NCBI GenBank assembly: GCA_050733215.1
Contig: JBOHSN010000007.1
Location: forward strand, 3,034 to 67,033
DNA: 64,000 nucleotides
Direction of reading: 5' to 3'
DNA from: Gemmatimonadales bacterium
GTDB taxonomy: Bacteria > Gemmatimonadota > Gemmatimonadetes > Gemmatimonadales > GWC2-71-9
The translations under genes were made by a program, and so were the position numbers. This document shows, one piece after another, positions 3,686-27,877 of this stretch; position 1 is the first letter of the stretch, and each line of letters begins with the position of its first letter. Below the pieces are notes generated by a model. It did no database searches. It saw nothing but the letters and a program-made list of their open reading frames with translations, and was not told where the DNA came from.

Positions 3686-4882
3686 TCAGGCGGTATTCTC
3701 CCGCACCACCTCTCCCACAAGCCCCATCGCATCCCGCAGCTGGCGGTCCGACAGGTAAGGTGCAGGACCGAGCCGGAGGACCTCACCGCGGGCATCGGTC
3801 CAGACCCCACGTGCATGGAGGCTCCGCACCAGAGCGGCCGCGACCGGGGATCGGAGCGCGAGGAAACCGCCAACCTCGTCGAGCGGGCAGGCACGGTCGC
3901 GGCTCAGGATCGCGGGGTCGAGATCCAGCGCGTCGAACGTCGAGGCGAGCAGCCCGATTTGATGCTGGCTCACCTCCCGCAGGAGCTGAGGCGTGAGCCC
4001 ACGCTCACGGAAGAAGTCGAACACCCGGGCGGCGCGGTAATGGCTGGTCGGATCGTAGGTAGCGCCGGCGAACCGGTCGCCTCCCTGTCCATAGGCTACT
4101 CGCTCCGCGCGCTGCCGATCGGTCAGGACGGTGAACTCGCTGAACCACCCCGTCACCACCGGCCGAAGGCCAGTGTCCGGCGGGAACCTCAGAAAGCAGT
4201 TTCCCTCTCCCAGCTGGCAGTACTTGTACCCGCCGCCCACGACGAAGGCGTCGCCCAGTCCCTCGTCGGCGAGCGAGAACGGCACGACGTTGAGCGCGTG
4301 ATAGGCATCCACCAGCAGCCGGCTCCCGTGGCGCCGGCAACTCGCCGCCACGTCGGCAAGCCCCCGGGCAATGCGCCCGGTGTCGAAGAAAACGGCTGAG
4401 ACGAGTACCAGGGCCGTGCGATCGTCCACCGCGTGGCTGAGTCGGGTCGCCAGCGATTCGAGCGGAGCCTCGGGAACACGGACTATGGTGAAACCCTCCT
4501 CCTCGAGGCGGTCGAGCTGCCGGCGGATGCTGTGGAATTCGCCGTCGGTAGTGAGCAACCGGGGGCGCGTCTTTAGCGGCAGGGCGGAGAGGAGGCGGAC
4601 CACCAGCTCGTGGGTGTTCGCCCCCAGCGCGACCGAGCCTCCCGCGTCTCCGAGCAGCCTGGCGAATCCCTCGCGGACCTGCTCCGCCTGAGCGAACGCA
4701 TGCTCCCACTTGTCGTCCACGTAGCGCGCCGCGTCCAGCCAAGCTCCCATATGGCCGTCGAAGCCACAGTCCGGCCAGGCCTGGTGGGAGTGCCCGGTGA
4801 GCAGGAGGCGCTCGGATACCCCGAATCGGGAATAGTCGGGCGCGAGGGCGTTGGGGAAGCCGTAGAGGGACCCGGGATGCAT
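3686..4882 (-). CDS. kynU: Kynureninase-like PLP-dependent hydrolase (aminotransferase class V fold)
   Basis: 398-aa ORF with kynureninase-like layout (LTGHSHQAWPD..., GGGYKYCQLGEGNCFL). Lies directly downstream of a tryptophan 2,3-dioxygenase gene. Confidence 0.8.
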   Translation of the reverse strand: MHPGSLYGFPNALAPDYSRFGVSERLLLTGHSHQAWPDCGFDGHMGAWLDAARYVDDKWEHAFAQAEQVREGFARLLGDAGGSVALGANTHELVVRLLSALPLKTRPRLLTTDGEFHSIRRQLDRLEEEGFTIVRVPEAPLESLATRLSHAVDDRTALVLVSAVFFDTGRIARGLADVAASCRRHGSRLLVDAYHALNVVPFSLADEGLGDAFVVGGGYKYCQLGEGNCFLRFPPDTGLRPVVTGWFSEFTVLTDRQRAERVAYGQGGDRFAGATYDPTSHYRAARVFDFFRERGLTPQLLREVSQHQIGLLASTFDALDLDPAILSRDRACPLDEVGGFLALRSPVAAALVRSLHARGVWTDARGEVLRLGPAPYLSDRQLRDAMGLVGEVVRENTA

Positions 4883-4884
4883 AA

Positions 4885-5040
4885 CTATCGGCTATCCGCT
4901 ATCCGCTATCCGCTATTCGGCTATCCGCTATCGGCTATCCGCTATCCGCTCTGGCCGCGGTCATCCCGGGACGGCCGCGGGCACCGAGCGACGGCGGTGA
5001 GAGCGGATAGCGGATAGCCGATAGCGGATAGCGGATAGCC
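4885..5040. repeat. Inverted arrays of a 7-bp tandem repeat (GCTATCC / GGATAGC) forming a ~40-bp-stem hairpin
   Basis: Left array has ~9 units (4885-4951). Right array has ~6 units in inverse orientation (5000-5040). The ~50-nt GC-rich loop contains GGCCGCGG twice. The structure fills the whole kynA-kynU intergenic space. Confidence 0.9.
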
Positions 5041-5042
5041 CA

Positions 5043-5822
5043 TTAAAGCTCCGTCCGGATCGCCCAGAGGTCCGGAAACAGCGGCTGGTTCAGCGTGGCG
5101 AGCAAATAGTCCGCCCCCGCGCTTCCCCCGGTGCCGCGGCGGGTCCCGATCGTACGCTGCACCATCTTCACGTGCCGGTAGCGCCACTCCATGAGCCCTT
5201 CATCGAGATCCACCAGCCGCTCGCACAGTTCAGCCAACGCCGGTTGGGTGCGGTACACTGCGATCAGCACCTCTCGGAGGGCGGAAGAGGACTCCACCCG
5301 CCGGGTGACATCCCGCTCGAGGTCGGTCCGGGGCACCGGGACGCCGCTGGCGGCCAGGTGGTGCAGGAAGGTATCCCACAGCGAGGCGGACTTCAGGCGG
5401 TGCTCCAACCGCCGGCGGGCCTCGCTGCCGACCGGGTAGCGCTCCAGCGCCTTCGGGTGCTTCCAGCCCAGCGCGAACTCGAGCTCTCGGAACTGAAACG
5501 ACTGGAATCCGCTCCCGGCCTCCAGCCGATCCCGGAACGACAGGAACTCGAGCGGAGTCATCGTCTCCAGGATGTCGAGCTGGGCGACCATCACCTTGAG
5601 GATGGTCAGGATGCGCTTCAGCGTCTGCCGCGCGCGGGCGCCGTCGTTGCGTGAGAGCAGCTCCTGGAGGTGGTCCAGCTCGTGAAGGACCTCCTTGAAC
5701 CAAAGCTCGTACACCTGATGGATCACGATGAAGAGCATCTCGTCGTGCTCCGGTCCCTCCGACAGGGGACACTGGAGCGCGAGCAGCTCATCGATTTTCA
5801 GGTACTCGGCGTACGAAGGCAT
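5043..5822 (-). CDS. kynA: Tryptophan 2,3-dioxygenase
   Basis: 259-aa ORF with typical bacterial TDO sequence: YAEYLKIDELL, FIVIHQVYELWFK, SGFQSFQFRELEF, WRYRHVKMVQRTIG. Confidence 0.9.
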   Translation of the reverse strand: MPSYAEYLKIDELLALQCPLSEGPEHDEMLFIVIHQVYELWFKEVLHELDHLQELLSRNDGARARQTLKRILTILKVMVAQLDILETMTPLEFLSFRDRLEAGSGFQSFQFRELEFALGWKHPKALERYPVGSEARRRLEHRLKSASLWDTFLHHLAASGVPVPRTDLERDVTRRVESSSALREVLIAVYRTQPALAELCERLVDLDEGLMEWRYRHVKMVQRTIGTRRGTGGSAGADYLLATLNQPLFPDLWAIRTEL

Positions 5823-5993: not shown

Positions 5994-6986
5994 ATGCTGA
6001 ACTACATCTGGGCAGGTCTGATCATCTCCAGCTTCGTCTTCGCCCTGGGCTACGACGTCCGCGACATCACCGGGGACAGGTACCGGAACGGCCAGCCGCT
6101 CCCGGTGCAGCTGGCCTTCCCCGAGGGCTACGACCCCGCCGCCCGCCGCGTGCCGGTGGAGATCCGGATCGAGCCCCGTCAGTACGCGAGCTTCTACCGG
6201 ACGGAGCAGGTGCCCGCCGCGAGCTATCCCGGCTACCTGCTGCAGACGCAGGAAGCGACGCAGCTCCGCTTCGGCGCCGGCGCCAAGCTCCCCGAACCTC
6301 TCGCTACCATCGGCAAGGTCTCGCGCTCGCGCGACGAGGAGCTTCAGGGCCGGCTCGTCGGATTCAAGCCGGCGCCCGCCACGGCGACTGCCGGAGTGGT
6401 CTTCGAGCCGGTCCGGTTCGTGAAGCTGAACGCCATCGCCGACGCGGCGCTGAACTTCGCGAAGACCGGGGCGGAGATCGCACTCGGTCTCATCGGCGTG
6501 CTGGCCCTTTTCCTCGGCGTGCTCAAGATCGCCGAGGACTCGGGGATCGTCTTCGCGCTGGTGAAGCTGGTCCGGCCCATTCTGCGACCCCTGTTTCCCG
6601 GAGTGCCGCCCGACCATCCCGCGCTGGGGATGATCGCTCTCAACCTCACCGCCACCGTCTTCGGGCTGGGCAACGCGGCGACCCCCTTCGGCATCAAGGC
6701 CATGGAGGAGCTCCAGAAGCTGAATCCCTCGGAGGACACCGCCACCAATTCCATGGTCATGCTCCTGGCAATCAACACCGCCGGCATCCAGCTGGTCCCC
6801 CCGGTGCTCCTCCTGGCGCTCATGGGCACGCAGATCAACCCGCTCATCTTCCCGATTCTCACCACGACGTTGCTGGGGTTCATCGTCGCCATCGTGGCCG
6901 CCAGGCTGCTCGGCCGGCTCCCGGGCTATCGCGCGTCCGATCCCAACCGGAACCCGCCGCGGCAGCCCGCGGCCGTGGAGGCGTGA
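5994..6986 (+). CDS. spmA: Nucleoside-recognition-domain membrane protein (SpmA-like)
   Basis: ATG at 5994 (MLNYIWAGLIISSF...). Multi-pass membrane protein paired with a SpmB-like gene. The upstream part of track ORF 5670.. is antisense to kynA. Confidence 0.75.
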   Translation: MLNYIWAGLIISSFVFALGYDVRDITGDRYRNGQPLPVQLAFPEGYDPAARRVPVEIRIEPRQYASFYRTEQVPAASYPGYLLQTQEATQLRFGAGAKLPEPLATIGKVSRSRDEELQGRLVGFKPAPATATAGVVFEPVRFVKLNAIADAALNFAKTGAEIALGLIGVLALFLGVLKIAEDSGIVFALVKLVRPILRPLFPGVPPDHPALGMIALNLTATVFGLGNAATPFGIKAMEELQKLNPSEDTATNSMVMLLAINTAGIQLVPPVLLLALMGTQINPLIFPILTTTLLGFIVAIVAARLLGRLPGYRASDPNRNPPRQPAAVEA

Positions 6987-6993
6987 GGCCGCC

Positions 6994-7539
6994 ATGGACA
7001 CCGCGCGCAACGCCATCAGTCTCCTCTCCTACTTCGTCATCCCGGTCATCCTGGTGGGCTTCCCCCTCTACGGTCTCTACAAGCGGGTTCCGGTCTACGA
7101 GAGCTTCGTCGAGGGTGCCAAGGAGGGATTTCAGGTCGCCGTCCGCATCATCCCCTACCTCGTGGCGATCCTCTTCGCCATTGCGATGTTCCGCGCCAGC
7201 GGCGCCATGGAGGCCCTGACCCAGGCACTCGATCCGGTGCTGGGCCTGATCGGCTTCCCGGCCGAGCTGCTGCCGATGGCCATCATCCGCTCCCTCTCGG
7301 GCTCGGGCTCGGCGGCGCTGGTGGTGGACATGATCAACCAGTACGGCGAGGACTCGATCCTCGTGAAGATGGCCGCCGTGATGTACGGGTCCAGCGAGAC
7401 CACCTTCTACGTGATCGCGGTGTACTTCGGGGCGGTGAACATCAGGAAGACGCGCCACGCGGTGCCGGCGGGGCTCCTCGCGGACTTCGCCGCCATGGTC
7501 ATCGCAGTCTGGACGGTGCGGCTGCTGTTCCCCGGATGA
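6994..7539 (+). CDS. spmB: Nucleoside-recognition-domain membrane protein (SpmB-like)
   Basis: 181-aa hydrophobic ORF 8 nt after spmA. Motifs IIRSLSGSGSAA and YGSSETTFYVIAVYFG. Confidence 0.75.
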   Translation: MDTARNAISLLSYFVIPVILVGFPLYGLYKRVPVYESFVEGAKEGFQVAVRIIPYLVAILFAIAMFRASGAMEALTQALDPVLGLIGFPAELLPMAIIRSLSGSGSAALVVDMINQYGEDSILVKMAAVMYGSSETTFYVIAVYFGAVNIRKTRHAVPAGLLADFAAMVIAVWTVRLLFPG

Positions 7540-7731
7540 CGCTCGCCGCTCGACATGGCGACGGCCGTCGCCCCCGGAGAGCAGTTCGCAGGCGGGATAA
7601 GCCAGTGACGCGGCGATCGTCCAGGCGATCGGTCGGTACATGAGATCCTCGCGGTATGGTGCGTTACCGCGAGTATCGCTTCCCGGGAGCGGCTGTCAAA
7701 AAGGTGTGTCGGAAGTGACCCGATTGTTCGG

Positions 7732-8049
7732 CTACACCTCCAGCTTACGGATTCGGCGCGGCAGCCGAGCCTCTTCCAGCGCCAACCCTGCCCGGTCGCA
7801 CCGCGCGTCAACCAGGCACTCGAGCCGCTCGATCATCCCGTAGCCCAGCAGGACCGTGGCGTAGATGCCCAAACTGACGCCCGGATCACCCTGTTCGATC
7901 TTGTATAGAGTCGAACGCGAGATCGACGCGCGATCGGCCGCATACGCCATCGGCATCCGGCGCCGCCGCCGGAGATTCTTGAGGTCCGCGCCCAGCTTCG
8001 CGAGAGCTTGGGTGACGCGCGGCGGGAGTGGTGATCGCGCCTTTCTCAC
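7732..8049 (-). CDS. XRE-family HTH regulator (HipB/y4mF-like antitoxin type)
   Basis: HTH segment MAYAADRASISRSTLYKIEQG. GTG start overlaps the upstream ORF's stop (GTGA). No partner toxin gene downstream. Confidence 0.7.
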   Translation of the reverse strand: MRKARSPLPPRVTQALAKLGADLKNLRRRRRMPMAYAADRASISRSTLYKIEQGDPGVSLGIYATVLLGYGMIERLECLVDARCDRAGLALEEARLPRRIRKLEV

Positions 8050-8231
8050 GACCGTCTCGCAACTCGGCCGTTATCTCGCGTAAGGTGTGCAATAATGAAC
8101 TCGATGTGCTTGCCGCCTGGGAACGGGACAGGCACGCTCCCTGATCGTCGCCACGGTGCCAGTTTAGACCCCGCGCCCGCACCAGTCCAATCCAATTCCC
8201 GCAGCAGGTGCCGAATTTCCGAGGAGATCAT
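8046..8231 (-). CDS. Small hypothetical protein (61 aa), translationally coupled on both sides
   Basis: ATGA overlap with the upstream pseudogene's end and GTGA overlap with the XRE gene. No recognisable domain. Confidence 0.35.
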
Positions 8232-9430
8232 GACTTACGCGCCCGCAATCCGGAGCGACTCCGGTCTTGCGCTGCCGCCAGCTCGGCGCTCGCCGCCCTG
8301 ACCTTCTCGAGCAGCGCCTCGAAGCGTGGCTCGCCCCGCAGGCCGTCCAGGAGCCAGTCGTGCTCGGCGAGGAACGGGTAGTTCAGCATGCCGAGCCCGA
8401 ACTCGCGCTCGAGGCAGTCCAAGGCAAGCTCCTTCTCGCCTGCCAGCGCATAGTAGTGCGCGAGCTCGCGCGCGAACATCTCCGTGCCTCGTGCGGCGGC
8501 CTCGAACGCGGGCGTGATCGCGCGCAGGGCATCGTGGGACTCGCCGCGCAGCCCATGGGCGAGGGAGCGAGCCCAGGACGCGAAGGCGGTTCCCAGGAAG
8601 CGGTCGGCCGCGGCGTCGAGCACGGCGGTGGCTTCCTCGAGCCGGCGGTCATACGCCAGCGCCCAGCCGAGGCACACTGCGGCGAGCGGACCCTCCGGGT
8701 CCATTCGTGAAGCGGCGATAGGGCTCGACGGCGTCCGCGGAGCGTCCCTCCAGAACGGCAACGAAGCCCTGCATGCCCTGAGTGAGCGGCGTGAGCGGGT
8801 CGAGCTCGAGAGCGCGCTCCAGGAGTGCGCGCGCGTCCGCGTTGCGGCCGCCGTGTCCGTAGACGTAGCCGAGCAGGAGGAGGGTGTCCGGGTCGTCGGG
8901 CTCGAGTAGGCCATCGCGATGTAAAGCCGACTCCCCTCGAGGTCCCCGGCCCCAGCTGTGTCGACCCGATCTCGTAAACGACCCCGATGTTGGGGTGGTC
9001 CAGTGCCGAGGCGGCCCGGGCTTCGCTCTTCAGACGCGCTTGGGCCTCCGGGTCTGCAGTGAGATGAAAAGGAAGAAACTTGAGGGCCACCAGCCGATCG
9101 AGCGCGAGGTCACGGGCCTTGTAGACCACGCCCATTCCCCCGCCGCCGAGGCGCTCGAGGATCTCGTAATGACAACGACCTGCCCGGCAGGCAGGATCGC
9201 CTCTGAAAGGGCCAGGATCGCCGTCGGAAGGACCTGCTCTCGCAACCAGTCGAGGAAGTCCGGCGCAGCGGCGTGGGAGGCGAGCAGGGAGGTCAGCTCA
9301 GCACGGAGCTCGGCGTCGCTGCCGCAGGCTTTCTCGACGAAGGCGGCGCGACTCTCCGGCGACAGCCGAGCGCTCGTTCGAGTAACTCCAGCAGACGCGG
9401 TCGGTCCGCCCCGCTGCGGGCATCGGTCAT
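8228..9430 (-). pseudogene. Frameshifted, internally deleted Hanks-type Ser/Thr kinase with TPR-like C-terminus
   Basis: At least four frame changes are needed: MTDA..ELLERALG, then [29 protein letters not shown], then [32 protein letters not shown]. The catalytic core is then missing. The TPR-like tail is split over two frames and ends [28 protein letters not shown]. Confidence 0.8.
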
Positions 9431-9595
9431 ACGTGAGAGACTAGGAGGGCATCGCCCGATCGCAAAAGACTACAGACCCTCCACCCCCCTGCAATGCGTT
9501 CGTCTCGGCACCCCCGGCCCATACGGAAGAAGCTCCCGCGGCTCCAGCGGGGGCTCGCGAAGTAGGTCCCCCAGTCGCTTCGCTGAGGGGGAAGC

Positions 9596-10009
9596 TCAGG
9601 CCTTCAAGGTCACCGACTCGAGTGCGAGTTCCGATACCCGAGCGAACTCCCGCCTGTTCGTGCTCATGATCGTCAGGGAATGCGCCAGGGCGGTGGCCGC
9701 GATCCAGAGGTCGTGAGCCCCGATTAAGCGCCCCACCGCCTCCAGATCCGCCCAGAGCTTGGCGTGAACCCGAGCAGTCGTCAGATCGAGCTCGAGAATC
9801 GGAAAGGCCGCGAGCACCGCCTCCACAAAGGCGGAGCGGGTGAGGCGCCGCCTGGGAGTATCGGCGCGGTGAACACCGTGGAGCAACTCGCTCGCCGTGA
9901 TGGTGGAGAGATAGGTCAGGTCGAGCCGTCCCGCCGTGACCGCGCCCAGGTCGAGCTGGCCCCGCTCGGCCGCGATGATGATGGAGCTGTCGAGGAGAAT
10001 GCCGCTCAC
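9596..10009 (-). CDS. vapC: PIN-domain toxin VapC
   Basis: 137 aa. LLDSSIIIAAERG N-terminus and DLWIAATALAHSLTIMSTNRREF C-terminus. 4-nt overlap with the antitoxin gene. Confidence 0.9.
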   Translation of the reverse strand: MSGILLDSSIIIAAERGQLDLGAVTAGRLDLTYLSTITASELLHGVHRADTPRRRLTRSAFVEAVLAAFPILELDLTTARVHAKLWADLEAVGRLIGAHDLWIAATALAHSLTIMSTNRREFARVSELALESVTLKA

Positions 10010-10284
10010 CGCGCCCAGGGGTCGCGGATCGGCTGAGCGTCGAGCGCCGCGCGGCCCGACTCGACATCTGCCTCGAAGGCCGCGGCGTCATCAGGATCGA
10101 GATGAGGGAAGGAGGCAAAAAGGGCGGGCAAGTCCGCTAGTGGCACGCCAGTATTTACCGGGCGCAATTCGGCCACGGGGCGGTTTCCCCGAAGGAGCAC
10201 GTATCGCTCCCGCCGGAACAGAACCCGATTGATGTAGTCCGAGAAGTGCCGAGCCACTTCGGTCACAGTGCGGGAGATCGGCAT
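10006..10284 (-). CDS. vapB: Phd/YefM-type antitoxin (VapB)
   Basis: 92 aa. N-terminus ISRTVTEVARHFSDYINRV...VLLRGNRPVAELRP is typical of Phd/YefM antitoxins. Confidence 0.85.
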   Translation of the reverse strand: MPISRTVTEVARHFSDYINRVLFRRERYVLLRGNRPVAELRPVNTGVPLADLPALFASFPHLDPDDAAAFEADVESGRAALDAQPIRDPWAR

Positions 10285-10581: not shown

Positions 10582-12858
10582 CTACCGCAGGCGGGGGGTG
10601 TAGCGGTTCAGCGTCGCGTAGGACGGCGGCCAGGGGAGGGTGTGACCCAGGTCAGCGGCCGCATGCCGGGTCCAGTAGGGGTCCCACAGGTGAGCCCGCG
10701 CCAGCACCACCAGATCGGCGCGGCCAGCCGCCAGGATGGTGTTGACGTCGGCCGGCGACGAGATGTTTCCCACGGTCATCGTGGGCACCCGCGCTTCGTG
10801 CCGGATCCGATCACTGAAGGGAGTCTGGAACTGGCGGCCGTAGACCGGCTTCCCCTCAGCGACGGTCTGCCCCGCAGAGACGTCCACGATATCGGCCCCG
10901 GCGGCGACGACCATCCGGGCTACCTCCACCGCGTCGTGCGGCTCCATCCCGCCCGGCGCCCAGTCCACGGCCGAGATCCTGACAGACAGCGGTCTGGCCT
11001 GGGGCCACTCGGCGCGGACCCGGGTCACGATTTCCAGCGGGTAACGCATGCGGTTGGCCAGGGATCCACCGTACTCGTCGGTTCGCCGGTTGGTGAGGGG
11101 CGAAATGAACGAGGCCAGGAGGTACCCGTGCGCCAGGTGCAGCTCCAGCAAGTCGAACCCGGCGGCGTCGGCCATCCTGGTGGCGCGGACAAAGTCGGCG
11201 CCCACCTGGTCCATGTCGCCCCGGGTCATCTCTCTGGGCGTCTGGTTGTGGGGCCGGTAGGGGATGGGAGACGCCGCGATCAGCGGCCAGTTCCCTTTGG
11301 CCAGCGGCTCATCCTCGCCTTCCCAGGGCACCCGGGTCGAGCCTTTCCTGCCCGCGTGCGCCAGCTGGATGCCGATCTTGGCCTCGCTCTCCTGGTGCAC
11401 GAACTCCACGATCCGCTGCCACCCGCGGACGTGGTCCGGGAGATACATCCCGGTGCAGCCGGGGGAGATCCGGGCCTCGCGGCTCACGTCGGTCATCTCG
11501 GTCATCACCAACCCGGCGCCGCCGATCGCCCGGCTGGCGAGGTGCACCAGGTGCCAATCATTCGGAAGCCCGTCGTCCGCCCGGTACTGGCACATCGACG
11601 ACACCACGATCCTGTTAGGCAGCACCAGCTCTCGAAGCCGGTAGGGCGTAAACAACGGTGGAGGGGCGGGATCGACCGTCACAGGGCGCCCGCTCTGCCT
11701 GCCAGCCTGCTCGGCGAACCAGCGGTCCACCTGCATCACCAGCGCGGGATCGCGCAGCTTCAGGTTTTCGTGGGTGATGCGGAGGCTCCGGGTGAGCAGG
11801 GTGAAGGCGAACTGGAGCGGCTCGGTGTCATGGTAGCGTTCCGCCGATTCGAACCACTCGAGGCTTGCCTGGGCCGCGCGCTGGAGACTCTCCACCTGGG
11901 GCCGCCGGCCGGCCTCGTAGCTGGCGAGCGCAGCGGGAATCGATGCTTCGGTCTTGAGCGCCGCCGCCAGTGCAATGGCGTCCTCCATCGCCAGCTTGGT
12001 GCCCGAGCCCACCGAGAAGTGCGCCGTATGGGCGGCGTCGCCCAGCAGCACGACGTTCCCCGAATGCCAGCGGGCGTTCCGGACGGTGGGGAACCGCCGC
12101 CAGATGGAGCGGTTGGCCAGGAGCCGGTGGCCGTGCAACTCGTCGTTGAAAAGGTGCTCCAGGTAAGCGACCGTGGCCTGCTCGTCAGTCTCGTCGAGGC
12201 CGCTCGCCTTCCAGGTCTCCTCCCGGGCCTCGACGATGAAGGTCGAGCGACCCGGGGCATACTGGTAGGCATGGGTGCGCCAGAGCCCGACCGGCGAAGG
12301 CTTGAAGTAGAAGGTGAAAGCGGGAAAGGGACGGGTGCTGCCGAGCCAGACGAAGCGGTTCTGGCGCCAATCGAGGTGAGGTTGGAACTGATCCGACAGC
12401 CGGTCGCGGATCAGGCTGGCGGCGCCGTCGGCGGCGACGATCAGATCGGCGGCGGGAAGACCGCAGTCGGTAAGGTCTCGGATCTCCCGCTGCCAATGAA
12501 CCTCGACCCCGAGCGATTGCGCCCGTCTTGCGAGCAGCTCCAGCAGGGTCTTCCGTTCCAGTCCGGAGAAGCGATGCCCCGTCGACCGCATGACGGTGTC
12601 GCGGTAGTGGATCTCGATATCCTCCCACCGCGCCGCGGCAGCGGCCATCGCCTGGTTGGTCTCGGGATCGGCCTCGCCGACGTTCTCGAGGGTCTCGTCG
12701 GAGAACACCACTCCGAAGCCGAACGTGTCCTCGACCCGGTTCCGCTCGTAGACCGTCACCTGGTGGCGGGGGTCGTGGCACTTGAGCAGGATGGCGAGAT
12801 AGAGGCCGGCGGGCCCCGCCCCCACAATGGTGACGTTCACCTGGTGGCCGGCTCCCAC
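10582..12858 (-). CDS. Two-domain flavoprotein: FAD monooxygenase fused to OYE-type reductase (2-aminobenzoyl-CoA monooxygenase/reductase or salicylyl-CoA 5-hydroxylase type)
   Basis: 758 aa. N-terminal [14 protein letters not shown] and [23 protein letters not shown]-terminal OYE TIM-barrel motifs [26 protein letters not shown]. Confidence 0.85.
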
Positions 12859-17116: not shown

Positions 17117-17129
17117 GTCGCCGCTGGCG

Positions 17130-19016: not shown

Positions 19017-19054
19017 CACGATTGCGGGACCCTGACCTGGCTCTGCAGCAGCAA

Positions 19055-19783: not shown

Positions 19784-20782
19784 TCACTTTCCGTGGTGCC
19801 TCGCGATCTCGTCCTTGCTGAGCCGGAGAAAGCGAGCAGCGTTGTCGTAGAAGATGTCGCGCTTCTGCTCCTCACTCAGGAACGGCGCCTTCTCGACGAT
19901 CGCGATGGCGGGCTCGATAACCCCCGGCCAGTTCATCTGGTCCGAACCGAACATCACCCGCTTCTCGAACCCGGCATCGATGAGCCTCTCGAGCTGCCCG
20001 TAGAAGTACGCTCGGGGGTAGAACCACTGGATCCCACCGATGTCGACGTACAGCTGGGGGTAGGCTCCGAGCATCGCGATCATCTCGTCGATCAGGGGGG
20101 ACCCGTAGTGCATCACGGAGACGCGCAGCCGGGGATGACGAATCAACACTTCCTCCAGCAGATATGGGCTCGTCAACCGGGCGCGGTACGTCGGAATAAG
20201 GTAGGCCGCTCCGGGCGGCCCCTCGCCCATGTGGATGGCGACCGGCACGTCGAGCGCCTCCGCCAGGGCCCAGTACGGCTCCATCCGTTCGTCGTCGGGT
20301 GCGATCCCAACGTATTGGTTTGACACCTCGCCAAAGATGGCGAAGGGCCCGTCCTTGAACAGGCGACGCAGCGAGTCCGGGGACATCTCGTCACGGCCAA
20401 GCTGAAACTGAATGCTGGGAATGAACCGACCCGGCGCTGGCTTGTACCACCGGCGCACACGTTCTGGCGTGCCGCTCAAGACTCCGATGATATTGCGCCG
20501 CTCTAGAACGGCGATCGTTTGCTCCATGACCGCCTCGTCAGTCATGGGTGACCAGATGGGATCGGAGCACGGAGGATCCTTCGCCACTGCGCTGAAGACG
20601 CCCCTGTTCGGATCCAGAGGGGGAGCATGAGGCAGAAGGGGCACGCACAGACCCAGGGGTGGTGGCCCGTTCCCGTCCGCGGGCGAGGCGTGCAGGTGCA
20701 TCTCGATGATTGGAAGACGCTGCTGCGCGCGTGCGTGAGGCGGCACGAGTAGGAGGGCCAGCCCGAGTACGAGCAGTCTCAT
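19784..20782 (-). CDS. Secreted amidohydrolase-family (amidohydrolase_2-like) metal hydrolase
   Basis: 332 aa. Signal peptide MRLLVLGLALLLVPPHARA. IIEMHLHA metal motif and a C-terminal FGSDQ...FYDNAARFL pattern. Confidence 0.7.
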   Translation of the reverse strand: MRLLVLGLALLLVPPHARAQQRLPIIEMHLHASPADGNGPPPLGLCVPLLPHAPPLDPNRGVFSAVAKDPPCSDPIWSPMTDEAVMEQTIAVLERRNIIGVLSGTPERVRRWYKPAPGRFIPSIQFQLGRDEMSPDSLRRLFKDGPFAIFGEVSNQYVGIAPDDERMEPYWALAEALDVPVAIHMGEGPPGAAYLIPTYRARLTSPYLLEEVLIRHPRLRVSVMHYGSPLIDEMIAMLGAYPQLYVDIGGIQWFYPRAYFYGQLERLIDAGFEKRVMFGSDQMNWPGVIEPAIAIVEKAPFLSEEQKRDIFYDNAARFLRLSKDEIARHHGK

Positions 20783-20991
20783 GATCGTCCCAGCTGTCGA
20801 GTCAGGCCGCGGGGAGAATGGTCAGCGGCATAACGAAATGCAGATCAGCTGCAAGCTCTCAAGCTCGCGCCCGCACAAGTGTACGTTTCATTGACCGCCA
20901 CCGATGAGCCGTGCCCACGCGGAACTCGTCACGGTCCGGCTTGTCAGCTGCAATTGCGGGTTAGACGCCAAGCCGGCGCGATCTGGGCTAA

Positions 20992-21348
20992 TTAGGCAGC
21001 GGTTGGCGACTTGCCCGCCCGGCGCAGCGCCGGGAGCCGCTTGATCTGCCGGATCCGCCGGGCCTCGGGCGAGCGGCTCGCCTGGTAGAGATCCCAGGCC
21101 ATCTGGAGGTTCAGCCAGAACTGGGCCTCCATCCCGAACAGTTGCTCCAGACGGAGCGCCGTGTCCGGCGTGACGCCGCGCTTGCCATGAATCAGTTCGT
21201 TCACCCGGGGATAAGAGACCCCGAGACGCTCGGCCAATTCCCGCTGGGTAAGGGCGAGGGGCTTGAGGAATTCCTCGAGCAGCATCTGCCCGGGGTGTGT
21301 GGGAGGTCGATTGGTGGGAATTCGCACCATGCTAGACCCCTTTGTCAC
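20992..21348 (-). CDS. higA: HigA-family antitoxin (XRE HTH)
   Basis: HPGQMLLEEFLKPLALTQRELAERLGVSYPRVNELIHGKRGVTPDTALRL is a canonical HigA sequence. Confidence 0.9.
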   Translation of the reverse strand: MTKGSSMVRIPTNRPPTHPGQMLLEEFLKPLALTQRELAERLGVSYPRVNELIHGKRGVTPDTALRLEQLFGMEAQFWLNLQMAWDLYQASRSPEARRIRQIKRLPALRRAGKSPTAA

Positions 21349-21350
21349 GC

Positions 21351-21644
21351 TCAGTGGTAATCGGCGATCTCGACATCTGCCGGCCCGGCATCTGTCCAGT
21401 CGAAGCAGATGCGGAGTTGGTCGTTGATCCGGATACTAAACTGTCCGGCTCGGTCTCCCTTCAGGGACTCCAGGCGATTGCCCGGTGGGACTCGAAGCGA
21501 GACCAAGCTCACCGCGGCATTCAGCAGGTCGAGCTTGCGCCGGGCGATTGCCCAGAGACTCGACGGGCACGCACGCCTGGCGGCCTTGGTGTCGCGACCA
21601 TGAAAGACGTCCTCCGTGCCAGCATCGGCAAAGGTGACGATCAC
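21351..21644 (-). CDS. higB: HigB-family toxin (RelE/ParE superfamily)
   Basis: 97 aa. LESLKGDRAGQFSIRINDQLRICFDW motif. Lies immediately upstream of higA. Confidence 0.9.
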   Translation of the reverse strand: MIVTFADAGTEDVFHGRDTKAARRACPSSLWAIARRKLDLLNAAVSLVSLRVPPGNRLESLKGDRAGQFSIRINDQLRICFDWTDAGPADVEIADYH

Positions 21645-21729
21645 CGGCGCCGCGGCGTCCAGGTCATGCCGGGAATATAACGGATAGCGTTACACGTGCT
21701 AGGCCCCGACCCCACGGGTCGGCCTGACG

Positions 21730-22872
21730 TTACTTGAGCAACTCCCCCGCGATGATCAACTGCTGGATCTCCGTCGTCCCCTCGTAAATCCGGAGCGCCC
21801 GTACCGCGCGGTACAGCCGGTCCACCGGGTGAGCGGCCAGCACTCCCCGTCCGCCGATAAGCTGCACCGCGTCGTCCACCGCCCGCTGGGCCATCTCCGT
21901 GGCGAAGGACTTGGCCATGGCCGCTTCACTCGTGATCCGTTCCTGGCCCTGGTCCTTCTCATACGCCGCCCGATAGGTCAAGAGCCGGGCGGCCGTAAGA
22001 TCTGTGGCCATTCGCGCGAGCTTCTGCTGCACCAGTTGGAACTTCGCCAGCGGCGTCCCGAACTGCTCCCGCTGCTTCACGTGGGCCAGCGACTCGGCGA
22101 GCGCGCGCGCGGCCATCCCGCAGGCCGCGGCGGCCACCGTGGGCCTCAACCGGTCGAGGGTCGCGAGGCCGAGCCCGTAGCCGCGTCCCTCGGTGCCCAA
22201 CAGCGCATCGGCCGGAACCCGGCAATCTTCGAACGCGATCTCCCCCAACGGATGCGGGGCACTCAGCACCTGCGGACCTGCGAACCGAAGCCCCGGGCTA
22301 TCAGCCGGTACCAGGAAGCAACTGATTCCCTTGGCACCCTTGGCTCGGTCGGTGGAGGCGAACACGATGTAGAGATCGGCGATGCCCGCGTTGGAGATCA
22401 GGGTCTTGGTCCCATCGAGTACGTATCCCGCTCCGTCGCGCCGCGCGGTGGTGCTGATGCCGGCCACGTCCGACCCTGCCTCGGACTCGGTCATCGCGAA
22501 GGCGGTCATCACCTTTCCCTGGGCGATCGGCCCGAGCCAACGGTCCTTCTGGGCAGGCGAGCCGCCCAACAGAATCGGCGTGGTGCCCAGCCCCTGCAGG
22601 GCGAACACCGCGTCGGCGAGCGGTGACGCTGCTGCGAGCGCCTCGCGCATCAGGCAGCACCCGCGGACATCTAGATCGAGAATCGGCTGGAGCCAGCCCC
22701 CCGCCCCCCCACCGAGCAGCCCAAGCAGGGCCCGCGCCTCCCTCCGGGCGTCGGCGTCTTCGACAGGTTCAGGGCGCTTGGCGATCTCGCCCATCGCGAG
22801 GCCGCTGGCCCGCTCGGCGAGCGCTGTGTGATGCGGTTCGAGAAAGGTGCGGATCAGTCTCGTGTCCGGCAT
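21730..22872 (-). CDS. Acyl-CoA dehydrogenase
   Basis: 380 aa. [24 protein letters not shown] and a [18 protein letters not shown]-terminus. Confidence 0.9.
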
Positions 22873-22875: not shown

Positions 22876-23676
22876 CTACTCGAACTTCGGGTCGCGCTTG
22901 GCGCGGAAGGCTTCGTAGGCCTCGCGGAAGTTGGGATTCTGCATGCAGGCGGCCTGGGCCTGGGCCTCCCACTCGATGGCGGAAACCAGATCCATCGCGG
23001 CCTCCTGGTTGAGCGCCTGCTTGGTGACTCCAAGGGCCGCCGACGGTCCTCGCGCCAGTCGGGCGGCGAAGTCGGTCGCCTCTGCCATCAACCGCTCGCC
23101 TGCTACCACCCGATTGTAGAGCCCGATCTCGGCGGCGCGCTCGGCGGTGATGAAATCCCCCAGCATGAGGAGCTCGCTCGCATGCGCCAGGCCGACGATC
23201 CGGGGCAGGAGCCAGGCCGCCCCCATGTCGGCGCCGCTGAGTCCCACCCGCGTAAAGAGAAAGGCTATCTTGGCGCTCTCGGCCGCGATCCGGATGTCGC
23301 TGGCCGCCGCGATGACTGCCCCCGCGCCAGCCACAGTCCCATTGAGCGCCGCCACGACCGGGCGGCGACACTGGCGAATGGAAAGAATGAGATCGCCGGT
23401 GAGACGGGTGAACTCGAGCAACCCCGCGGCATCCCTCGAGAACAGCGCGCCGATGATGTCCTCCACGTCTCCGCCGGTGCAGAAGGCTCGGCCGGTGCCG
23501 GTGATGATGACGGCACGAACGCCGGGCTCGGTGTCGAGCGCGCGGAAGGTGTCCCTGAGCTCGGTGTAGACCTCGAAGGTGAGCGCGTTGAGCCGCTCGG
23601 GCCGGTTGAGCGTAATGGTCGCGACGGCGCTCGCCGGATCAACACTGTAGAGGAACGATCTGGGTTTGAGGAACAT
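22876..23676 (-). CDS. Enoyl-CoA hydratase/isomerase (crotonase family)
   Basis: 266 aa. ITLNRPERLNAL, FCTGGDV, AALNGTVAGAGA. Confidence 0.9.
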   Translation of the reverse strand: MFLKPRSFLYSVDPASAVATITLNRPERLNALTFEVYTELRDTFRALDTEPGVRAVIITGTGRAFCTGGDVEDIIGALFSRDAAGLLEFTRLTGDLILSIRQCRRPVVAALNGTVAGAGAVIAAASDIRIAAESAKIAFLFTRVGLSGADMGAAWLLPRIVGLAHASELLMLGDFITAERAAEIGLYNRVVAGERLMAEATDFAARLARGPSAALGVTKQALNQEAAMDLVSAIEWEAQAQAACMQNPNFREAYEAFRAKRDPKFE

Positions 23677-23740: not shown

Positions 23741-23849
23741 TCACCACGGAAGGGCACGGAGAAGGCACGGAGGACCACATTGTCACTGTTTCATTGCGCG
23801 TTCCGTGCTCCCTCCGTGTCCTCCGTGTCCTCCGTGTCTCCGTGGTGAA
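23741..23849. repeat. Inverted arrays of CACGGAG / CTCCGTG short tandem repeats (long imperfect hairpin)
   Basis: Left arm TCACCACGGAAGGGCACGGAGAAGGCACGGAGGACCAC. Right arm TTCCGTGCTCCCTCCGTGTCCTCCGTGTCCTCCGTGTCTCCGTGGTGAA. The outer 11 nt are perfectly complementary. Confidence 0.85.
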
Positions 23850-23897: not shown

Positions 23898-24266
23898 TCA
23901 GTGCCCCTTCAGCTCGACCAGCAGCACATGGGTGGATCCGGTTCCTTTGTATTCGCTCGCGTGGGTTTCCGGTTCGTGCCAGGTCGCCTGGCCGCTCTTG
24001 GCCGTCTGCTCGGTCACCTTCCCGTCTGCGGACGTGAACTTGGTCTTGCCCGCGCCCGAGATACTGTAGCTGATGTAGGCGGGATGCGAATGCAGCGGGA
24101 CCTTTACGCCGGCGCTGCTATGAAAGTCGAGCACGCGCACGCGCTCGTTTTCCAGCAGCACAGTGAAGCGGTCCGGGGCCACCTTGACCGGATCTTGCGC
24201 CTGGACCGTGCCCGCCGCGAACAGCAGAACAAGAGCGAGGCTTGACGCTGCTACCCGTGGTGACAT
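23898..24266 (-). CDS. Secreted cupin-domain protein
   Basis: Start at MSPRVAASSLALVLLFAAGTVQA, preceded by GAAGGAGG. Cupin His motif PLHSHPAY. The gene is bracketed by 26-bp perfect direct repeats. Confidence 0.75.
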   Translation of the reverse strand: MSPRVAASSLALVLLFAAGTVQAQDPVKVAPDRFTVLLENERVRVLDFHSSAGVKVPLHSHPAYISYSISGAGKTKFTSADGKVTEQTAKSGQATWHEPETHASEYKGTGSTHVLLVELKGH

Positions 24267-24307
24267 GTTGACCTCCTTCGTTGCGTGTCTAGGTGAACTC
24301 ATGAACA

Positions 24308-24333
24308 CGTGTCCTCCGTGTCTCCGTGGTGAA
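24308..24333. repeat. Second copy of the 26-bp repeat CGTGTCCTCCGTGTCTCCGTGGTGAA
   Basis: Identical to 23824-23849, same orientation, 484 bp apart. Confidence 0.9.
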
Positions 24334-24356: not shown

Positions 24357-25538
24357 TCATCTGCCGAGCACCGCGGTCGCTTCGATCTCCACCACCGCCT
24401 CTGGGTCCACCAACGACTTCACCTCCACCAGCGCCATCGCCGGGTAGTGCGTCCCCATCCGGCGCCGGTACACCTCGCCCAACGGCTTGAGGCTGGCGCG
24501 GTACTGCGCCATGTCGGTGACATAGATCGTGAATCGCCCGATGTCCCCCGGCTCGCCGCCGGCCTGGCGGAGCACGACAAGCACGTTGCCCAACGCCCGG
24601 TCGAACTGGCTGACGAAATCAGCGGCCGGCACTCGACCCGAGCCGTCGCGCGCGGTCTGCCCCGCGATGAAGAGCGTCCTGACCCCCGCCGGCGCCAGCA
24701 TCCCGTGGTTCCACCCTCGGGGCGCGCCGAGCTCCTCGGGGTTGACGATCGCGAAGCGGCTGCTCATCGGGTCTCTCCCGTCCAGGACCAGGGTCTCCCC
24801 ATTGGGGGGATCGGTGACAGCAGCGGCCGAGAGCGACACCACCGCCGCCGCCACCTCCGCCGCCGAGATCAGCCGAGTCTGGCCCTCCGAAGCGAGGGCC
24901 GCCGCCAGCGCCTCTTCCCGGGTGCGGCCGGTCTTGGCCACGATCCGGGCCACGGTCTCGGCGGTCATCTCGGTATCCACGAAGCCGGGGCACACCGCGT
25001 TCACCGTGACGCCGGTGCCCGCCACCTCCGCAGCCGCCGACCGGGTGAGACCCACCAGCGCATGCTTGGCCGCGGAGTAGGCCGCGAGATACTTGCCGCC
25101 TCGGAGCCCCGCCGTCGAAGCCACATTGACCACCCTGCCCCACCGCCGCTCGAGCATTCCTGGAAGAAAGGCGCGGGTGCAGAGGAAAGCGCCGGTGGCG
25201 TTGACGGCCATGAGGCGGTTCCACTCGTCGAGCGAGGTCCGGACGACGGGCATCGACGCGGCGGCGCCGGCGTTGTTGACCAGCACCGCAACCGGTCCCA
25301 GCTCGGCGGCTTCGCGGGAGAGGTTCTCCACGCTCGCTTCGCTGGTCACGTCGCAGACCACCGCCTTTGACTCATGCCCCAGCGCCACCAGCTCGGCGGT
25401 CTGCCGCTCGATCTGGTCTCGATTGCGGGCGGCGACCACCACACCGAGACCGGCGTCCGCAAGCGCTCGGGCGGTCGCAGCTCCAATCCCCCGGCCGGCT
25501 CCAGTCACCACCGCCACCCGACCGGCCAGGGGATTCAT
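24357..25538 (-). CDS. Fusion protein: short-chain dehydrogenase/reductase + RidA (YjgF/L-PSP) domain
   Basis: N-terminal VVTGAGRGIGAA...YSAAKHAL. C-terminal ~125 aa (IAGQTARDG...RFTIYVTDM...PAMALVEVKSLV...VEIEATAV) is typical of RidA. Confidence 0.85.
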   Translation of the reverse strand: MNPLAGRVAVVTGAGRGIGAATARALADAGLGVVVAARNRDQIERQTAELVALGHESKAVVCDVTSEASVENLSREAAELGPVAVLVNNAGAAASMPVVRTSLDEWNRLMAVNATGAFLCTRAFLPGMLERRWGRVVNVASTAGLRGGKYLAAYSAAKHALVGLTRSAAAEVAGTGVTVNAVCPGFVDTEMTAETVARIVAKTGRTREEALAAALASEGQTRLISAAEVAAAVVSLSAAAVTDPPNGETLVLDGRDPMSSRFAIVNPEELGAPRGWNHGMLAPAGVRTLFIAGQTARDGSGRVPAADFVSQFDRALGNVLVVLRQAGGEPGDIGRFTIYVTDMAQYRASLKPLGEVYRRRMGTHYPAMALVEVKSLVDPEAVVEIEATAVLGR

Positions 25539-26302
25539 TTCACCTGCCCGGTCCTAGCGCCGAGCTCGGCCTGGACCGCTTCGTCGAGAATCGCGCCGAG
25601 GACTTCGATGGTGGCGCGGCCTTCCTCGGCGGTCGCCTGGGCCGGATGCCCGAAGTAGGCCCGGTCGCCGCCCGCCTCCTCGAAGCTCTGCTTGCCATCC
25701 CGGATGGCACGGAAAAGCGACGCCGGGTTCGGTGGCAGCGCTGCCCTGGTGGCCTCGCGCACCAGCTCCGGGCGTTCGGCCAGCACCATCGAAGTCTCGA
25801 ATTGGCCGGCGTGGCAGGCGCCGCTCTTGAACTCGTCGCTCAGCCGGAGGGCCCACGGCTTGGCGGCGAGGTTGGGAAACGCCACTGCCAGCCCGAGGTT
25901 GCGTCGAATCATGTCTGCGGCCGCTTCCACCGAGGCGAGGTGTCCCGGATCGAGATGCGCGTTGGCGATGGCCAGCACGCCGAATCCATGCCGAGCGAGG
26001 CTGCCGGCGATATCCAGCACCGTCGCAGTGACCGTCTCCGGGCGGAGCGAAACCGTTCCGGCGAAACCCTGCGCAAAAGCCGCCGCGGTGTAGGTCAGAG
26101 GCGGAAGCACTACTACCCTCAAGCCGCGAGCGGCCAGCCGGGCGGCGCCCGCACGCGCCATCGCCTGGGCGATGATCACGTCGGTCTCCAGCGGCAGGTG
26201 CGGACCGTGCGCCTCGATGGCGCCCACCGGCAGGATGGCAACGGATCTCGGGCCGGCGGCGTCCCGTGCCTCCTCCCAGGTCATTGCGGCAAGCGGTTGC
26301 AC
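25535..26302 (-). CDS. Creatininase-family amidohydrolase
   Basis: 255 aa. LPVGAIEAHGPHLPLETD, ANAHLDPGH and GACHAGQFETS motifs. Confidence 0.8.
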   Translation of the reverse strand: MQPLAAMTWEEARDAAGPRSVAILPVGAIEAHGPHLPLETDVIIAQAMARAGAARLAARGLRVVVLPPLTYTAAAFAQGFAGTVSLRPETVTATVLDIAGSLARHGFGVLAIANAHLDPGHLASVEAAADMIRRNLGLAVAFPNLAAKPWALRLSDEFKSGACHAGQFETSMVLAERPELVREATRAALPPNPASLFRAIRDGKQSFEEAGGDRAYFGHPAQATAEEGRATIEVLGAILDEAVQAELGARTGQVK

Positions 26303-26347
26303 GGTTATCGTGTCCTCACCGCTCTGTCCCAGCCGGGGATTTCAGCC

Positions 26348-27877
26348 ATGACTGTCGAGGGTCAGGCGCAACTCAACATCGCCGACTTCTTTCTCGATGC
26401 CCGGGTGCGCGAAGGCCGGGGCGACCGGACCGCGCTCATTACCGATGCCGGACGGTTGAGCTACCGAGAGGTTCAGGCGCTGGCCAACCGCTATGCCAAC
26501 CTGCTCAGTTCGGCGGGAGTGTCTCCGGAACAGCGCGTCATCATCGCCCTGCCAGACGGGCCCGACTACGTGGCGGCGCTGTTCGGCATCCTGAAGATCG
26601 GCGCCGTCGTAGTGATGGTCAACCCGGAGCTCAAGCCCGACGCGATCGAGTACTTCTTCGAGTACAGCCGCGCCGTAGTGGCGCTGGTAGCCGCGGAGCG
26701 GGCCGACGCATTTCGCGCCGCGGCCGGCCGGGGTGCACATGCGCCCGCGTTGCTGGTCGTGGGCCTCGGCGATTGGAAATCGCGCCTCGATGTGGCACCG
26801 GAGACCTGGCGGAACTTTCCCACGCACCCTGACGACGCCGCCATCTGGCTCTTCTCCGGCGGCACCACCGGCCGCCCCAAGGCCGCGGTGCAGCCGCATC
26901 GCTCGTTCGTCAACACGGCGCAGTGCTACGCCGGCCAAGTCCTCTGCTACACCGAGGACGACGTGACGCTCTCGGTTCCTAAACTCTATTTCGGCTACGC
27001 GACCGGCTCCAATCTCCTCTTTCCCTTCGCCGCCGGCGCCGCCAGCGTGCTGTTCGACGACCGCTGCACCGCAGAAGTCATCTTCAGCCGAATCGCGCGA
27101 TGCCGGCCGACCATCCTGATCACCGTCCCCACGATGATCAACCAGATGGTGAGTCATCCGGAGGCCGGCCGCCAGGACCTCTCCTCCTTACGACTGGCGA
27201 CTTCCGCGGGAGAGGGGTTGCCCGAAGAGCTGCACGCCAGGTGGGACCGGACTTTCGGGGTTCCGCTCCTCGACGGCCTCGGCACCGCGGAGATGTGGCA
27301 CATCTTCCTCTCCAATCGACTGGGCCGGGTTCGCCGTGGGACGCTGGGCGAGGTGGTGCCCGGCTTCGAGATCAGGGTGGCGGACGAGGAGGGTCGGGAG
27401 GTGCCTGACGGGACGATCGGGCACCTCTGGGTGCGGGGCGGGTCGCGGGCCCTGGGCTATTGGCAACAGCTGGACAAGAGCCAGACCTGCTTCCGGGGTG
27501 AGTGGGTGGTTACGGGCGACCTGGTCCGGCGTGACGCCGACGGCTACTACGGCTATGGCGGCCGAGCCGACGAGCTGCTCAAGGTGTCGGGCAGATGGCT
27601 CTCCCCCACCGAGGTGGAAGGCTGCCTGCTGCTCCACCCGGCGGTGTCGCAGGTGGCGGTGGTGGGCGTGGCCGACGCGAATGGCCTGGTCAAGCCGTAT
27701 GCCTACGTCGTCCCTCGCGAGCGCCGCGACGGCCTGGCGGAGGAGCTCAAGGCCTTCGTGCGCGATCGGCTGGAGCCGTACAAGCATCCCCGCGAGGTGA
27801 TCTTCCTCGACGCCCTCCCGACCACGCACCTGGGGAAGGTGGACCGGGGCCAGCTCAGGGCGGGACCGGGGCACTGA
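26348..27877 (+). CDS. Aryl-CoA ligase of the benzoate/2-aminobenzoate-CoA ligase family
   Basis: ATG at 26348. AMP-binding motifs LFSGGTTGRPKA and GDLVRRDADGYYGYGGRADELLKVSG. The upstream part of track ORF 25367.. is antisense to the creatininase gene. Confidence 0.85.
   Translation: MTVEGQAQLNIADFFLDARVREGRGDRTALITDAGRLSYREVQALANRYANLLSSAGVSPEQRVIIALPDGPDYVAALFGILKIGAVVVMVNPELKPDAIEYFFEYSRAVVALVAAERADAFRAAAGRGAHAPALLVVGLGDWKSRLDVAPETWRNFPTHPDDAAIWLFSGGTTGRPKAAVQPHRSFVNTAQCYAGQVLCYTEDDVTLSVPKLYFGYATGSNLLFPFAAGAASVLFDDRCTAEVIFSRIARCRPTILITVPTMINQMVSHPEAGRQDLSSLRLATSAGEGLPEELHARWDRTFGVPLLDGLGTAEMWHIFLSNRLGRVRRGTLGEVVPGFEIRVADEEGREVPDGTIGHLWVRGGSRALGYWQQLDKSQTCFRGEWVVTGDLVRRDADGYYGYGGRADELLKVSGRWLSPTEVEGCLLLHPAVSQVAVVGVADANGLVKPYAYVVPRERRDGLAEELKAFVRDRLEPYKHPREVIFLDALPTTHLGKVDRGQLRAGPGH

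Follow-up and report, generated by a model that had tools for sequence, protein, structure and literature searches.

A tryptophan-linked variant of the 2-aminobenzoyl-CoA gene cluster in Gemmatimonadales with a candidate creatininase-family deformylase

Gene clusters of the abm type serve the aerobic metabolism of 2-aminobenzoate (anthranilate) in Azoarcus (Aromatoleum) evansii. The pathway begins with the formation of 2-aminobenzoyl-CoA, from which a flavoenzyme makes 2-amino-5-oxocyclohex-1-ene-carbonyl-CoA, and enzymes of the beta-oxidation type carry the degradation further (PMC4539516). In pAL1 of Arthrobacter Rue61a, a verified anthranilate-CoA ligase is found beside the two-domain flavoenzyme (PMC3534580). 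Here we analyse a cluster of this type in a 64,000-nucleotide stretch of a Gemmatimonadales genome (the window; GenBank contig JBOHSN010000007.1, positions 3,034 to 67,033), in which abm-type genes lie together with genes for tryptophan 2,3-dioxygenase (kynA) and an atypical kynureninase (kynU). The window is part of contig C7 of the source genome (3.97 Mb, 91% complete), the closest named relatives of which are uncultured Gemmatimonadales. Profile searches and reading of the open reading frames (ORFs) revealed that the nine pathway genes picked out by the initial annotation are all real and correctly placed:

3686-4882, minus strand: kynU-like gene for an atypical kynureninase of pyridoxal phosphate (PLP) fold type I, by profile and predicted fold
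5043-5822, minus strand: kynA, tryptophan 2,3-dioxygenase (PF03301)
10582-12840 (longest ORF from 12858), minus strand: AbmA-type FAD monooxygenase/Old Yellow Enzyme (OYE) reductase (NF006101)
12837-14294, minus strand: second, stand-alone OYE-family flavoprotein (PF00724)
21730-22872, minus strand: acyl-CoA dehydrogenase of abm clusters (Pfam acyl-CoA dehydrogenase domains)
22876-23676, minus strand: crotonase-family enzyme (PRK08258) of abm clusters (NF006107)
24357-25538, minus strand: short-chain dehydrogenase/reductase (SDR) fused to a Rid-family domain without the arginine (PF00106 and PF01042)
25535-26302, minus strand: creatininase-family metalloamidohydrolase, candidate N-formyl hydrolase (PF02633, over cut-off)
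26348-27877, plus strand: aryl-CoA ligase of a distinct subfamily (TIGR02262)

We propose a variant abm pathway that is fed by tryptophan and removes the formyl group late, which we consider reasonably probable as a whole. KynA would convert tryptophan to N-formylkynurenine, which the atypical kynureninase would most likely cleave directly to L-alanine and N-formylanthranilate. Cleavage of N-formylkynurenine is a known side activity of kynureninases. The creatininase-family hydrolase, paired with its own ligase subfamily, would take the formyl group off the free acid or the CoA ester to yield anthraniloyl-CoA. Hydroxylation and reduction by the two-domain flavoenzyme would then give 2-amino-5-oxocyclohex-1-ene-carbonyl-CoA, and Rid, SDR, crotonase and acyl-CoA dehydrogenase would process the ring by beta-oxidation-like steps. 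The second OYE would be an ene-reductase with an accessory, optional role, and fusion of SDR and Rid would probably have arisen as a by-product of two coupled genes. The chemistry assumed for the ligase and the monooxygenase/reductase has been established elsewhere and would apply here by analogy, whereas we infer every substrate, above all that of the deformylation step, from the observed gene identities, motifs, synteny and co-occurrence.

The linkage of kynurenine and abm-type genes is not due to chance, because the partner genes recur near the creatininase-family gene in 80 genome loci, which were located via that gene, with partners counted within 10 kb and many contigs short. The ligase gene was found in 75 of these loci, SDR in 65, Rid in 63, crotonase in 62, acyl-CoA dehydrogenase in 58, monooxygenase in 51, a kynU-type gene in 45 (some canonical), kynA in 42 and the second OYE in 17; a cyclase gene was found in 0/80. 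The loci belong to Gemmatimonadota, Eisenbacteria, Acidobacteriota, Planctomycetota and Myxococcota/delta groups, and all 80 come from metagenome-assembled genomes. The relative G034 has a compact order of creatininase, SDR, Rid, crotonase, dehydrogenase, OYE, monooxygenase, kynA and kynU with the ligase gene divergent, and in compact clusters kynA directly follows the monooxygenase gene, without DNA of the kind at 5994-10266. At the junction of dehydrogenase and OYE, close relatives carry different, unrelated inserts or no insert. Therefore, the 24-kb spread of the cluster in the source genome is secondary.

The core enzymes resemble those of canonical abm clusters. The monooxygenase/reductase scores 1109.7 bits against NF006101 (cut-off 1078), shares 54% identity with the Thalassospira protein and 52% with the Arthrobacter pAL1 protein, and has an intact HxAHGY reductase motif. 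The crotonase scores 377 bits against NF006107 (cut-off 330) and is 50-53% identical to its counterparts in the clusters of Ralstonia and Thalassospira, the acyl-CoA dehydrogenase is 47% identical to the Thalassospira cluster protein, and the SDR and Rid parts are 40% and 40-44% identical, respectively, to canonical abm cluster proteins. The proposal that kynA and kynU feed a 2-aminobenzoyl-CoA module is borne out by their contiguity in relatives, by the lack of a detectable gentisate dioxygenase and by the same linkage in Thalassospira marina. From these sequences, a route from tryptophan through anthraniloyl-CoA into the abm steps appears highly probable. The linkage itself is not new, because the canonical cluster of Thalassospira marina also holds kynU and kynA.

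KynA scores 215.8 bits against PF03301, over the cut-off, and 272.7 bits against TIGR03036, below its cut-off of 390.7, with the GTGGS loop present. The kynureninase gave no match to TIGR01814, and its single sequence found nothing in the Protein Data Bank (PDB) at E 1e-5, so that profile and fold were needed for its assignment. Its profile matched the P. fluorescens kynureninase 1QZ9 best among PDB entries (E 4.8e-20), with cysteine desulfurases at 1e-5 or weaker, and the AlphaFold2 model (pLDDT 87.6) superposed best on the same structure by Foldseek (TM 0.80). The protein is 24% identical to the annotated Thalassospira KynU. It keeps the PLP lysine, the Asp/His pair, Trp59, Trp246, Thr275 and Arg365, whereas GHSHQ replaces GNSLG and FH(S/T)I replaces FPxD with loss of the aspartate. 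Trp59 and Thr275 align with the residues that confer specificity for kynurenine, not the 3-hydroxy compound, in P. fluorescens KynU. The atypical kynureninase was also seen in six genomes of family f7 (L154-L157, L165 and L166), with no kynA within the 20 kb read.

The ligase scores 484.8 bits against TIGR02262 (cut-off 375), and its best PDB matches are benzoate-CoA ligases, followed by the anthranilate-CoA ligase AuaEII. It is 34% identical to the verified anthranilate-CoA ligase of pAL1, to which the canonical cluster ligases are 51-53% identical, and 34-36% identical to those canonical ligases. The substrate pocket reads Phe-Gly-Tyr, compared with Phe-Ala-Tyr in BadA (Ala227) and Phe-Thr-Phe/Tyr in AuaEII and the AbmG types. 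By sequence, the ligase is not orthologous to the verified anthranilate-CoA ligases of abm clusters.

As the initial annotation had noted, no kynurenine formamidase was recognised in the region. In the source genome, a search for KynB (TIGR03035, cut-off 223) found three cyclases at 62-69 bits; these were rejected as KynB on their scores, and one has a signal-peptide-like start, another lies beside an NCS1-like transporter gene and the third lacks two motif histidines. The creatininase-family protein stays under the equivalog cut-offs for creatininase (92.5 of 235 bits), MftE (105.7 of 172) and IolN (36.1 of 245), and its metal ligands Glu30, His32, Asp41, His116, Asp118, His164 and Glu169 are conserved in 84 of 85 homologues. 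The same family includes BrbF of Sinorhizobium meliloti, a proven formamidase that takes formate off an aryl formamide (PMC9478397).

The distribution of these genes was determined in a sample of 200 Gemmatimonadota genomes with a completeness of 90% or more, with G238 left out of the tallies. Monooxygenases were assigned to a type by how similar they are to the window protein (at least 56% versus at most 54% identity), not by the counted features, and a quick tree on a subset agrees with the split (SH-aLRT 96). The window type was found in 61 genomes, 60 of which carry the creatininase-family gene (G214 counted from its locus) and 59 the atypical kynU, while KynB was found in none at E<=1e-50 and in 8 at E<=1e-35. 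The 22 genomes of the canonical type carry neither the creatininase-family gene (0) nor the atypical kynU (0), and KynB was found in 14 (E<=1e-50) or 18 (E<=1e-35). In addition, the KynB cut-off was passed in 0/50 further creatininase-cluster genomes of a partly overlapping sample, in which the best match lies beside a second kynA. Within the family of the source genome, another operon type has kynA beside a KynB cyclase gene, with a kynurenine-monooxygenase-like neighbour in two of three cases; a PF03301 search at E 1e-30 was too strict for counting kynA, which was read from neighbourhoods only. In the canonical, Trp-linked cluster of Thalassospira, the divergent slot is taken by an alpha/beta hydrolase whose HGGYW and GHSAG motifs are typical of kynurenine formamidases. 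The complementarity with KynB, the adjacent cyclases elsewhere, the Thalassospira hydrolase and the precedent of BrbF together point to deformylation, and we consider it likely that the creatininase-family protein is a deformylase.

The neighbourhood of the gene bears on the point at which it would act. It is the divergent neighbour of the ligase gene in 57 of the 62 ligase-led loci with upstream DNA, and it co-occurs with the ligase rather than with kynA-kynU. Thirteen genomes have the atypical kynU without this creatininase subfamily; an abm monooxygenase over the threshold was found in 0/13 and KynB in 1/13, where the formamidase search covered KynB and this creatininase subfamily, and one of the genomes, G251, has a monooxygenase fragment at a contig end. 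The single-contig genome G224 contains kynA-kynU and no PF02633 gene at all. A formamidase of the KynA-KynU step should stay with these genes, yet the creatininase-family gene leaves with the ligase, which suggests that it may quite possibly act after the kynureninase. In its fullest form, such a route would be widespread and would combine three undescribed subfamilies, with a kynureninase specialised for N-formylkynurenine, a ligase activating N-formylanthranilate and a creatininase-fold enzyme deformylating N-formylanthraniloyl-CoA before the ring is attacked; this exact combination is unlikely, and no report of deformylation of thioester-bound N-formylanthraniloyl-CoA was found. Literature searches for a link between creatininase and kynurenine formamidase, or between such a ligase and kynureninase, gave nothing relevant, with thin coverage of subscription journals.

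Other placements of the hydrolase are less probable. In the textbook order, the creatininase-family protein would be a third, unrelated type of N-formylkynurenine formamidase between KynA and KynU. The complementary distribution with KynB is as expected from this, formamide hydrolysis has a precedent in the family (PMC9478397), and the locus L063 consists of ligase, creatininase, kynA and kynU with no other abm gene on its contig. However, the creatininase-family gene is found in 0/13 genomes where kynA-kynU or kynU persists without abm genes, and its tightest partner is the ligase gene, so that action before the kynureninase seems rather improbable. The initial annotation instead listed the protein, together with Rid and the second OYE, as a candidate for the steps after the monooxygenase/reductase; there it might hydrolyse the enamine, a lactam or a C-C bond of the ring. 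Its gene tracks the abm genes (60/63 genomes) and heads their transcription unit, the protein weakly matches IolN, a creatininase-family ring C-C hydrolase, and a CoA thioester, having no free carboxylate, may be a suitable substrate for a Rid protein without the arginine. Against this stand the canonical clusters, which share the late genes and run the late steps without a creatininase; moreover, 48 of the 61 window-type genomes gave no match to the second OYE, and the formyl group is left unexplained. A ring step is thus doubtful, an upstream deformylase being more likely, and any other role of the creatininase-family protein is improbable.

The whole CoA module might alternatively serve salicylate or another benzoate, with the kynurenine genes as chance neighbours. 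In the sdg salicylate pathway of Streptomyces sp. WA46, an aryl-CoA is reportedly the substrate of a two-domain flavoenzyme that belongs to the same NCBI family as the window protein, and the name of this family includes salicylyl-CoA 5-hydroxylase. Furthermore, the ligase is not of the AbmG type, and kynA is 4.7 kb from the monooxygenase gene in the source genome. However, kynA and kynU directly follow the monooxygenase gene in many compact clusters across phyla, gentisate 1,2-dioxygenase was not found in the 91%-complete source genome (TIGR02272), salicylate-AMP ligases match the ligase far worse (E 1e-44 versus 1e-115) and the reductase motif of the flavoenzyme is intact. On the missing dioxygenase, the poor scores of salicylate-AMP ligases and the usual abutment of kynA-kynU on the monooxygenase gene, the salicylate reading is very unlikely.

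Several points weigh against the tryptophan-fed pathway with late deformylation. Related genomes are not independent in the co-occurrence counts, and the window type of monooxygenase is one side of a single branch in the quick tree (SH-aLRT 96); therefore joint descent, as one inherited unit, may be the reason why creatininase, ligase and kynU occur together. KynB is also not the sole missing gene, since thioesterase and MarR genes are mostly missing from the 80 loci as well. TIGR03035 found nothing in 14 control genomes, kynureninase carriers included, so that lack of KynB is common in general. Formamidases of the alpha/beta-hydrolase type were excluded for the source genome only, with one query. 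In addition, the ligase resembles benzoate-CoA ligases more closely than it does the verified anthranilate ligases, and the abm comparison used annotated sequences of Ralstonia, Thalassospira and pAL1, with SdgC and A. evansii compared by description only.

The initial annotation had singled out the SDR and Rid as late-step candidates. Both are standard parts of canonical abm clusters, since Rid is present in those of Ralstonia, Thalassospira and Arthrobacter pAL1 and SDR in that of Thalassospira. Among 17 further genomes of the genus, 4 have the fused gene at full length and free of stop codons, which rules out an assembly error as its origin. The two genes are fused in 14 and separate in 49 of 63 loci, and fusion is thus not a requirement of the pathway. 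Separate SDR and Rid genes overlap at the stop/start junction in 4 of 5 relatives inspected, and the window retains ATGA at this place; hence a small frameshift may explain the fusion. Neither the SDR-Rid fusion nor the second OYE can be an essential late step, since each is present in a minority of the clusters.

Ammonia release from an enamine had also been proposed for the Rid domain, which keeps PF01042 and the conserved C-terminal glutamate Glu120. The imine deaminase activity of Rid proteins reportedly depends on Arg105, and the Rid4-7 group, without the arginine, is predicted to have no deaminase activity (PMC4433059, PMC5619798). The domain reads YPAMALVE where YabJ-type RidA has HKPARSCVEV, with methionine at the position of Arg105. 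The arginine is found in 0/72 homologues, nor is it present in the Rid proteins of Ralstonia, Thalassospira and pAL1. RidA-type deamination is ruled out on the absence of this residue, which the cited mechanism needs. The arginine serves to bind a carboxylate, a group which is missing from a CoA thioester; ammonia release by an arginine-less Rid on such a thioester may therefore be possible, in the canonical clusters as much as here.

The second OYE has a His-x-x-His-x-Tyr motif (His234, His237 and Tyr239) and three C-terminal cysteines (Cys434, Cys440 and Cys452), all invariant in 16 sequences. Its predicted structure is a TIM barrel with a helical insert, and the closest structural matches are OYEs of the thermophilic type. 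The cysteines, which lie in a region of the model with low confidence, are spaced much as are three of the four ligands of the Fe-S cluster in FadH-type reductases. The gene was detected in 13 of the 200 genomes, all of them with the window cluster type (13/61), and sequence comparison makes it a dedicated but optional accessory reductase. Replacement of a dead reductase domain is ruled out as its function, as the OYE motif of the monooxygenase itself is intact. In L055 and G208 (C3:900807-902247) the gene is in two pieces, owing to a frameshift, a sequencing error or decay. The stop codon of the OYE gene overlaps with a GTG at 12840 in a shared GTGA (4 nt), which points to ordinary translational coupling with a monooxygenase start probably at 12840; the monooxygenases of relatives align from residue 6-7.

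The nine pathway genes occupy 11,118 of 24,192 bases, and the remainder is mostly unrelated DNA, about 13 kb of which interrupts the cluster in the source genome. It contains three toxin-antitoxin pairs (PIN/Phd, RES and HigBA) and is arranged as follows:

5994-10266: unrelated DNA between kynA and the monooxygenase gene, with an spmA/spmB-like Gate-domain pair, a helix-turn-helix (HTH) gene, gene fragments and a PIN/Phd toxin-antitoxin pair
14295-21729: 7.4-kb insert with a DUF7380-DUF4209 gene, a RES toxin-antitoxin pair, a chimeric ORF, an Amidohydro_2 gene and HigBA
23898-24308, minus strand: small inserted cupin-like gene (weak Pfam match)

The divergent ligase gene is separated from the creatininase start by 45 nt. 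The cupin-like gene is present in 1 of 80 related loci and is not a conserved cluster member; identical 26-nt direct repeats (23824-23849 and 24308-24333) bracket it, and the repeat is found elsewhere in close relatives. Within the 7.4-kb insert, the chimeric ORF (19055-19690, minus strand) joins an unrelated, signal-peptide-like N-terminal part in frame with an OYE-derived segment, of which 19180-19272 is a 93-nt, 91% identical copy of the 5' region of the second OYE gene (14141-14233). The chimeric ORF is probably a rearrangement scar. Two related elements resembling integron attC sites (20826-20968 and 14284-14426, 74% over 50 nt) were also seen, the former with TAAC...GTTA ends and the latter with the GTTA end only, both in this insert; folding of the two was no better than that of shuffled sequences. 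An integron integrase over the cut-off is encoded elsewhere in the source genome (locus L262, contig C89).

The gap between kynA and kynU (4885-5043) consists of two inverted, REP-like arrays of the 7-nt unit CCGCTAT and its variants. Near the beginning of the window, a gene at 1934-2992 (minus strand) encodes a protein built of repeats of about 43 residues. The gene lies between two 71-nt direct repeats (at 1718 and 3167) with copies elsewhere on the contig. Directly after the ligase gene, a 699-residue fusion of an amidohydrolase and a metallo-beta-lactamase-fold domain (28007-30106, plus strand) is not conserved in related loci. In the close relatives L056, L057, L059, L060, L062 and L073 a FadB-like gene follows the ligase gene, with 38-42% identity to the FadB-like protein of the Thalassospira cluster; the window has none at this position, and a 35% homologue lies on contig C8. 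Six kb past the ligase gene, a phenylacetate (paa)-like cluster (33994-46283) would provide a second CoA-dependent aerobic aromatic route nearby, with a PaaZ-type aldehyde dehydrogenase-MaoC fusion and paaA-D/G/H/I/J/Y-like genes read from sequence. A search against Rfam gave no match, and promoter and terminator scans gave matches at chance level.

The new part of the cluster appears to be its upstream section, in which three uncharacterised subfamilies (kynureninase, ligase and creatininase-like hydrolase) travel together. The window cluster type is present in about 30% of the sampled Gemmatimonadota genomes (61/200). If the proposed pathway is true, it would explain a formyl step without KynB in largely uncultured bacteria. 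It would also assign a role to the many proteins of a creatininase subfamily that at present carry the label 'creatinine amidohydrolase', and draw attention to a subfamily of kynureninases overlooked by TIGR01814. In addition, the small, fixed gene set makes the late 2-aminobenzoyl-CoA steps accessible in vitro, including the role of the arginine-less Rid.

Comparison with individual known enzymes revealed shared folds with changed details. The bacterial KynA-KynB-KynU pathway has the tryptophan dioxygenase and kynureninase fold in common with the window, which is without KynB. The P. fluorescens KynU (1QZ9) shares fold and active-site residues with the window kynureninase, which differs in its low identity (about 22-24%), its GHSHQ motif and the missing FPxD aspartate. 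RidA has the same fold and C-terminal glutamate as the window Rid, where methionine takes the place of Arg105 as in Rid4-7. The window hydrolase has the PF02633 fold and the full set of metal ligands of P. putida creatininase, with Asp118 replacing a glutamate. BrbF is likewise a PF02633 protein, a likeness at the family level, whereas the window protein forms a separate subfamily in a tryptophan/aryl-CoA context.

At the level of whole clusters, the sdg system (by description) differs from the window, in which no gentisate dioxygenase was found, no ligase of the salicylate-AMP type is present, and a beta-oxidation set and kynurenine genes are. The canonical abm clusters of Ralstonia, Thalassospira marina and pAL1 are closest, with the same two-domain flavoenzyme, crotonase, dehydrogenase, SDR, Rid without Arg105 and an aryl-CoA ligase, and that of Thalassospira marina also has, by annotation, kynU and kynA inside the cluster. 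Compared with them, loci of the window type seldom have a thioesterase (1/80) or MarR gene (2/80), with no MarR regulator found in the window, and some lineages have the optional second OYE or the fused SDR-Rid. The main differences of the window from the canonical clusters are the other ligase subfamily, the added creatininase-family hydrolase and the atypical kynureninase.

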